A DNA stretch of 34,153 bases. It comes from a virus. Lineage: Duplodnaviria > Heunggongvirae > Uroviricota > Caudoviricetes. The stretch lies in IMG/VR virus record IMGVR_UViG_2874968258_000005. One strand, given 5' to 3'. Both the position numbers and the translations under genes were made by a program. Below, piece after piece: positions 17,655 to 17,868 of this stretch (positions within the stretch are counted from its first letter, which is position 1; every line of letters starts with the position of its first letter). The notes under the pieces were generated by a model, which saw only the letters and a program-made list of their open reading frames with translations, did no database searches and was not told where the DNA came from.

Positions 17655-17703
17655 GTCAGTCTCCGTCGTCTGGGGTTACCGACGGTCAGTATGCGGAAGG
17701 CAG

Positions 17704-17729
17704 AAAAAAAGCCGGATTTACCGGCTTCA
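17704..17729 (-). terminator. Intrinsic terminator-like hairpin (minus strand: GAAGCCGG-TAAAT-CCGGCTTC followed by U7)
   Basis: Plus-strand AAAAAAAGCCGGATTTACCGGCTTCA. A near-identical copy lies at about 25256-25281. Confidence 0.55.
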
Positions 17730-17868
17730 CTGAAAACGGGGAAATACCCCCTTCAAAACCCCTTCAAAAACGCCACAGACGCTTCAAAAAAGCCAGGGTG
17801 TACATTCATGCCATCAGAATAAAAAACGCGTTTCTGATGCGTTTCAGGGGTATTTACGGCGGGGTGGG
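17730..17868. promoter_or_regulatory. Central intergenic region: phased CTTCAAAA repeats; candidate strong gyrase site and/or late promoter for I
   Basis: CTTCAAAA at about 17751, 17763 and 17782, with A-tracts. Non-coding gap between F and I at the geometric centre of the element. Confidence 0.3.

Follow-up and report, generated by a model that had tools for sequence, protein, structure and literature searches.

Two nearly identical hairpins, each followed by a run of Ts, lie in noncoding gaps of a single prophage, and they raise the question whether such an element ends transcription, begins it, or does both. The window, by which we mean the whole stretch of 34,153 nucleotides that was analyzed (Caudoviricetes; IMG/VR record IMGVR_UViG_2874968258_000005), is a Mu-like prophage with its phage genes read on the minus strand. 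An earlier note, made from the letters of this DNA, had described the element as an intrinsic terminator present in two copies; we examined its anatomy, its relation to known elements of phage Mu, and its occurrence in related prophages.

The repeat and its place in the prophage

The gene order on the minus strand is ner, A, B, GemA, mor, endolysin, terminase, portal, F, I, T, and the tail genes. The genes and repeat copies discussed below are the following.

33533 onward (+): repressor
31076-33241 (−): transposase A
30050-31000 (−): B
25732-26337 (−): GemA
25286..25735 (−): mor orthologue, 149 aa, presumed activator of both cassettes (Pfam Mor, E=4e-30)
25244..25285 (−): repeat copy 2 (site 2), the cassette after mor and before the endolysin gene, from the repeat search
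24613..25200 (−): GH108 endolysin gene, which opens the first late operon (lysis, terminase, portal, F)
18626-20197 (−): portal
17869..18690 (−): Mu F-like head morphogenesis gene, the last gene upstream of site 1
17692..17733 (−): repeat copy 1 (site 1), the cassette between F and I, sequence TGCGGAAGGCAGAAAAAAAGCCGGATTTACCGGCTTCACTGA
16698..17654 (−): gene I, head protease/scaffold, which opens the second late operon
15785-16690 (−): T capsid

The second late operon continues from I and T into tightly packed head-completion and tail genes. The late region has just two sizeable intergenic gaps, and the two cassettes occupy them. At site 2 the hairpin starts 5 nt past the TAA stop codon of the Mor-family ORF, which confirms the earlier placing of one copy after mor, and the endolysin ATG follows 55 nt after the end of the site; for site 1 the distances are about 135 nt from the F stop codon and 49 nt to the I ATG. 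Two other inverted repeats were noted in the prophage: a 10-bp hairpin, AACAGTCCGT-TCCC-GCGGACTGTT and then a T-run, at 31045-31068 (+) in the A-B gap, antisense to the phage genes, and an inverted repeat CTGCCTTTT/AAAAGGCAG at 15714-15784 (−), between the major capsid gene T and the next ORF, where it stops 3 nt short of the start codon of that ORF.

A repeat search of the window returned the two copies as a family of 42 nt, ungapped and identical at 38 of 42 positions (90%), so that the repeat is real and the coordinates given for it earlier were right to within a few bases. Both copies hold an exact 26-mer core, AAAAAAAGCCGGATTTACCGGCTTCA, at 17704-17729 and 25256-25281. When up to three mismatches were allowed, the 26-mer matched only these two places in the window, and none of 100 dinucleotide shuffles gave any match. 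A profile built from 45 related sites found the same two places with E of about 1e-17 each, the next match having an E of 0.023; no third cassette, for example before the tail genes or com/mom, was found by this profile search of the window. That next match, CCGGTTAATCCGGC, has the core of a Mu-type Mor site and occurs once, inverted, at 4294-4308 (+) inside the ORF 3472-4572 (in RefSeq a phage tail protein), where it is probably a chance occurrence in coding sequence. A search of the whole window against Rfam gave no family.

On the minus strand both copies read GAAGCCGG-TAAAT-CCGGCTTT and then the T-run. A terminator scan listed both, and RNA folding yielded the same stem at each site, 8 bp with five G-C pairs, a 5-nt loop, and U7 directly after the stem; the intrinsic-terminator form reported earlier for the transcribed strand was therefore recovered at both copies. 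Between the T-run and the hexamer described below as the −10, the copies share a further block, nTGCCTnCnGCA, which by its position we read as promoter spacer with no role in termination.

Homology to the middle promoter Pm of phage Mu

Directly after its mor gene, phage Mu has the sequence ctgtaaaCAG-TAAAGCCGGTTAATCCGGCTTTTTTT-acgtcctcaa-TATCCT-gtgatgA. Over the hairpin and T-run the core in the window is identical to that of Mu at 24 of 26 positions, and the 10-nt gap from there to the −10 hexamer is equal in length. As mapped by the Howe laboratory, the Mor dyad of Mu Pm extends from −51 to −36 (center −43.5) within a Mor footprint from −56 to −36, and the promoter has a −10 but no −35 (PMC4287176; PMC4390567). 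The wild-type sequence from −57 to −52 is given as GTAAAC in a table of mutants (PMC4390567), which fixes the register: the Mu dyad is AGTAAAGCCGGTTAAT and the −10 is TATCCT. Of the hairpin, the dyad thus takes in the 5' arm and loop together with the 5' flank, and the same register puts the 3' arm at −35 to −31, the T7 run at −30 to −24, TATCCT at −13 to −8, and an A at +1. Numbering from the second GTAAA, by which the GC palindrome itself would be the dyad, was ruled out, since the wild-type base at −52 is C. Bases immediately downstream of the Mu dyad are also critical for activation (PMC2582627). In the curated Mu record AF083977 the annotation of the Mor-activated promoter (9163-9233) encloses that of a predicted terminator (9179-9200).

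By this alignment the conserved block is a homologue of the Mor-dependent middle promoter Pm of Mu, with a predicted terminator nested in it. The earlier reading of the element as a terminator had its form right and missed its main function. Mu is reported to have a mapped early terminator, 't9.2', for which a literature search gave no match, and the Mu hairpin is annotated only as a predicted terminator (AF083977). The upstream CA(G/A), the distance to the −10, and the position directly after mor are all shared by Mu and the window. The two differ in the loop, which is TAAAT in the window and TTAAT in Mu, and at −48, which is G in the window and A in Mu. They also differ in arrangement: Mu has one copy, which drives a middle operon encoding C, and C in turn activates the late promoters, whereas the window has two copies directly before two late operons and no C gene. 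Megablast of the F-I region against the phage collection gave no match, and for the mor region its sole matches, at about 82%, were in gemA of Mu-like phages; short-query blastn against phages gave chance matches only, Mu having been missed probably through the filtering of the T-run together with the two mismatches.

Transferred to the window, the Mu register gives the following predicted parts.

25268..25283 (−): site 2 predicted Mor-binding dyad AATGAAGCCGGTAAAT, aligned to Mu Pm −51 to −36, 13/16 match
25260..25280 (−): site 2 hairpin, 8-bp stem and 5-nt loop, from the terminator scan and folding
25256..25262 (−): site 2 T7 run, the tail of the terminator, which by homology falls at promoter −30 to −24, from the terminator scan and the Mu alignment
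25240..25245 (−): site 2 predicted −10 CACCAT (−13 to −8), from the spacing of Mu TATCCT; predicted +1 is A at 25232
25198..25239 (−): site 2 leader, with 5' arm GAAGCAGA at 25239..25232 and 3' arm TCTGCTTC at 25220..25213
25205..25210 (−): site 2 Shine-Dalgarno (SD) sequence AGGTGC; endolysin ATG at 25200..25198
17716..17731 (−): site 1 predicted Mor-binding dyad AGTGAAGCCGGTAAAT, aligned to the Mu dyad, 14/16 match
17708..17728 (−): site 1 hairpin, identical to that of site 2, from the terminator scan and folding
17704..17710 (−): site 1 T7 run, from the terminator scan
17688..17693 (−): site 1 predicted −10 CATACT, from the alignment to Mu; predicted +1 is G at 17680
17652..17687 (−): site 1 leader, with 5' arm CCGTCG at 17685..17680 and 3' arm CGACGG at 17668..17663
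17661..17664 (−): site 1 SD GGAG, overlapped by the 3' arm; I ATG at 17654..17652

The dyads of both sites stand in the Mu register, and their differences from Mu include one base in each half-site. CATACT and CACCAT lie 22 bp past the dyad, as TATCCT does in Mu, and the −35 region reads CCGGCT. Both hexamers are weak, matching at 3 to 4 of 6 positions, and a generic sigma-70 scan called no −35/−10 pair at either site. Such silence is expected for an activator-dependent promoter but is no positive evidence for one. The hexamer has the form xAxxxT and is kept at its fixed distance in relatives. For the window, we infer binding, start sites, and termination alike from the sequence.

One Mor-family activator and the position of Mu PI

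The Mor protein of the window is 61% identical to Mu Mor and 32% identical to Mu C, and it is the single Mor/C match in the window; the RefSeq annotation of the same prophage likewise has one Mor-family CDS. A second Mor/C homologue, as expected of a C activator gene, was found neither in the window nor in the annotated prophage. Because Mor is present and C is absent, the cascade would have two steps, an early phase leading through Mor to two late operons, where that of Mu has three. The profile search found two cassettes and no more, each in one of the two sizeable gaps that the late region has; the prophage thus appears to lack a middle operon and to have two late operons that depend on Mor. 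The helix-turn-helix and beta-strand residues of Mor are invariant across relatives. A cryo-EM preprint on Mor/C gives no base-level contacts.

At the left end of the window are a mom-like gene (1-738) and com (about 644-829). The region upstream of com, 830-956 (−), contains two motifs, GATCGAT/GATCG, as well as a TTAAAT that precedes a TATATC hexamer by 21 nt; it is without a Pm-type hairpin, in a prophage without a C gene.

Site 1 occupies the position of a late promoter of Mu. The F-I intergenic region aligns with the G-I intergenic region of Mu, and the −10 block of site 1, CCTTCCGCATACTGAC, is nearly identical to CCTCCCGCAAACTGAC of Mu PI, a block that lies inside the annotated Mu late promoter at 17977-18043. 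Site 1 thus resembles the C-dependent PI in this block and in its position between a T-tract-rich intergenic region and gene I. The two differ in the activator box, which in Mu is ATAGCATAACCCCAG and is bound by C, whereas the window has a Mor-type dyad with the hairpin and T7. With the place of the C box taken in this way and no C gene found, we did not class site 1 with the C-dependent late promoters of the PI/Plys type. The noncoding stretch from F to this cassette, 17735-17868 (−), contains repeated T-tract/GAAG units (TTTTTTGAAG, TTTTTGAAG, and TTTTGAAG) and aligns in part with the Mu G-I region. The gyrase cut site annotated in Mu, its central strong gyrase site, lies in that region, and the stretch may correspond to this site.

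Distribution and conservation among relatives

The same prophage region was found in 49 Escherichia coli genomes. The element itself occurred in 46 of 5426 complete E. coli genomes, at a minimum and median of 2 and a maximum of 6 places per genome and always at 2, 4, or 6, which contradicts a generic repeat of the host chromosome, the alternative that the earlier note had named against its own reading. The same counts bear on its other suggestion, of a duplicated regulatory cassette or small repeat element rather than convergence: the duplicated cassette stands, and the small repeat in a mobile sense does not. In IMG/VR the exact 26-mer was present in 57 stretches from 41 contigs, 21 of which had two copies about 7.6 kb apart, and in many of these contigs it was identical though the flanking DNA was unrelated to that of the window. 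Relatives were also retrieved through the Mor protein, blind to the element; this gave prophages of Pluralibacter, Raoultella, Klebsiella, Serratia, Kluyvera, Brenneria, and Trabulsiella with Mor proteins 66-77% identical. All of them carry the element downstream of mor, and also upstream of I where the locus extends that far, even though the flanks are unrelated. In the relatives examined, the copies occupy the same two syntenic prophage positions.

The two positions are conserved in different ways. At the lysis-gene site the hairpin and T7 were invariant in 30 of 31 distinct contexts, the exception being a truncated and probably mis-sorted row; variation there was confined to the loop (TAAAT or TTAAT) and the first two bases, and the stem never varied. 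At the I site of L100, L133, L129, L075, L079, and L064 and of Klebsiella phage Kp4866-3, the dyad, the loop, and the −10 were kept, and the 3' arm and T-run were replaced by unrelated C-rich sequence. As the dyad and −10 are kept where the 3' arm and T-run are lost, the promoter would be the constant part of the I site and termination dispensable there. The comparison indicates that the Mor site is universal and the predicted terminator optional at this late-late junction. Where the stem remains, some of its changes are compensated, as in L059 (GAAACCGG/CCGGTTT) and L068 (GAAGGCGG/CCGCCTT). Across I sites, two of the eight pairs were changed on both sides (7 cells), a count that was reached in 10 of 500 shuffles; this is modest support for selection on an RNA hairpin there.

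A scan for the TTAAT variant with a T-run gave 63 stretches with one match each, all on different contigs, from phages that were either Mu-type and also have C, or Mor-only with an I site without the T-run. The full two-copy arrangement is therefore typical of the TAAAT lineage. In all 16 distinct genomes that have both sites, the two carry an equal loop variant (6 TAAAT and 10 TTAAT). No Mor residue in the folded core tracked the variant, and the concordance may thus be due to conversion or shared history and not to co-adaptation with Mor.

Three further observations were made in these relatives. In L075 (6064-6133), L079 (8377-8447), and L105 (3485-3554), the loop of the leader hairpin behind the lysis-gene cassette holds a second, inverted copy of the core, CCGGATTAACCGG. 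In the C-bearing Mu/SfMu-type phages L074, L078, L093, L102, L104, L120, L124, and L126, a homologue of the GH108 endolysin (about 71% identical) lies directly behind Pm, in the middle operon. Most of these C-bearing phages have a Mu-type endolysin behind C as well.

Predicted pairing of the leader with sequence upstream of the start site

In nearly all members of the family, folding gives a long hairpin between the T-run and the start codon, with z of about −3 to −8 in the lysis-gene class. Its 5' arm runs through the promoter spacer and the −10 as far as the predicted +1, and its 3' arm reaches the SD and often the AUG; in read-through RNA from site 2, CCGGCACC (25249..25242) is predicted to be able to pair with the SD as well. 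The arms can be wholly different between clades and yet complementary, as in L040 (CCGGAA/TTCCGG), L056 (TCGGCA/TGCCGA), and L025 (ATGCCTGCAG/GTGCAGGCAT). As the arms lack homology in both sequence and register, RNAalifold returned no consensus structure for a MAFFT alignment of 21 leaders; each leader was folded separately and compared with shuffled and swapped controls. Inclusion of the 23 nt that precede the predicted start contributed −11 to −23 kcal/mol, for most members far more than in shuffled versions (z of about −4 to −7); an exception was site 1 in the window, with z = −0.2. Own partners surpassed swapped partners in 2000 of 2000 permutations. Predicted accessibility of the SD changed little in several members, including site 2 of the window.

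As the 5' arm lies upstream of the inferred start, the structure would be possible only in RNA that has read through the terminator. The folding results suggest that this pairing keeps read-through RNA from being translated. According to Davis, Simons and Kleckner (1985), as cited in PMC13181058, translation signals of IS10/Tn10 are sequestered in read-through RNA, which protects the element from outside transcription. The likeness lies in a complementarity between the leader and ribosome-binding region on one side and sequence that precedes the element's own start on the other; only transcripts from outside can form the structure. The case in the window differs in being predicted only and in lying behind a terminator in a phage late operon, not in a transposase gene.

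Discussion

We consider it very probable that each copy is a composite cassette homologous to Mu Pm, with a terminator nested in the promoter, and that the two serve a two-step cascade run by Mor alone. The sequence anatomy, the homology, and the conservation pattern are direct observations; the mechanism follows from them by analogy with Mu. By that analogy the early protein Mor would bind the imperfect dyad A(A/G)TGAAGCCGGTAAAT, made up of three flanking bases, the 5' arm, and the loop as judged from the mapped Mu sites, and the 3' arm and T7 would fill the region of the −35 hexamer and spacer. RNA polymerase bound by Mor would then use the weak −10 22 bp downstream (CACCAT or CATACT) and start about 8 nt further on. 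When the same DNA is transcribed from upstream, the GC-rich hairpin of 8 bp with U7 is predicted to stop the incoming transcription, which would be that of the early operon ending at mor for site 2 and that of the first late operon ending at F for site 1. A Pm-type operator would thus stand where Mu has the C-dependent PI, and the near-identity of the copies would reflect recognition by one activator together with common descent or conversion, neither convergence nor mobility.

Each half of this composite could in principle account for the element by itself. If the copies were intrinsic terminators only, duplicated or homogenized by recombination and with no promoter function, their textbook form at both sites, the position of site 2 directly behind the mor stop codon, and the compensated stem changes in some relatives would all be expected. 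A plain terminator tolerates changes in loop and stem, yet the 26-mer is identical amid unrelated flanks; the similarity runs past the T-run into a −10 hexamer whose spacing is fixed; in Mu Pm this sequence is where the Mor site has been mapped; at the I site some relatives have lost the 3' arm and T-run and still have the dyad and −10; and the downstream operons would be left without a promoter. We therefore regard this explanation as improbable. The converse, that the copies are promoters only and the hairpin symmetry a by-product of constraints on the activator site and promoter, with no useful termination, draws on those same I sites that do without 3' arm or T-run, on the location of the whole hairpin and T-run within regions that Mu Pm activity needs, and on the status of the Mu terminator as just a prediction. 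The Mu dyad, however, takes in only the 5' arm and loop of the stem-loop, so that recognition by Mor needs no complementary 3' arm; the hairpin and T7 are nevertheless invariant at the early/late boundary in all but one of the distinct contexts, and L059 and L068 have changed both arms in a compensating way. The leader complementarity, which would be active only in read-through RNA, also points to upstream transcription as something that matters to the phage. A promoter without useful termination is in our judgment quite improbable.

A small mobile or dispersed repeat of the REP or MITE kind, landed twice in the prophage, would likewise be short, noncoding, and built around an inverted repeat. 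It would not be expected to be restricted to so few complete E. coli genomes, in even numbers of places, or to stand at the same two syntenic positions in every relative, and we give this origin almost no credence.

The composite cassette may have a further function. We propose, tentatively and with somewhat less than an even expectation of being right, that it is a three-layer insulator between expression phases, in which the terminator, the nested Mor-dependent promoter, and an IS10-like fold-back lock act together across the Mor-only enterobacterial Mu-like clade. The spacer, the −10, and the first bases would serve as the 5' arm of a hairpin that silences or destabilizes read-through RNA, whereas transcripts started by Mor would be without that arm and hence be translated. 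Such a lock would keep the endolysin gene, and gene I too in many relatives, from being expressed too early.

Judged on sequence grounds, the element is real, functional, and conserved, and it is a variant of the known Pm and terminator module of Mu, used twice in a Mor-only lineage. None of these findings overturns what is known of regulation in Mu. If the read-through lock is true, the cassette would offer a natural and portable means of insulating transcription as well as translation. A DNA segment of about 50 bp would serve as the stop signal for one operon and as the activator-dependent start for the next. For the late promoters of widespread enterobacterial Mu-like prophages the cassette offers a sequence rule, namely a Mor dyad, 22 bp, and an xAxxxT hexamer, and it suggests that one lineage has dropped the middle step of Mu by putting a Pm-type operator directly before its late operons.
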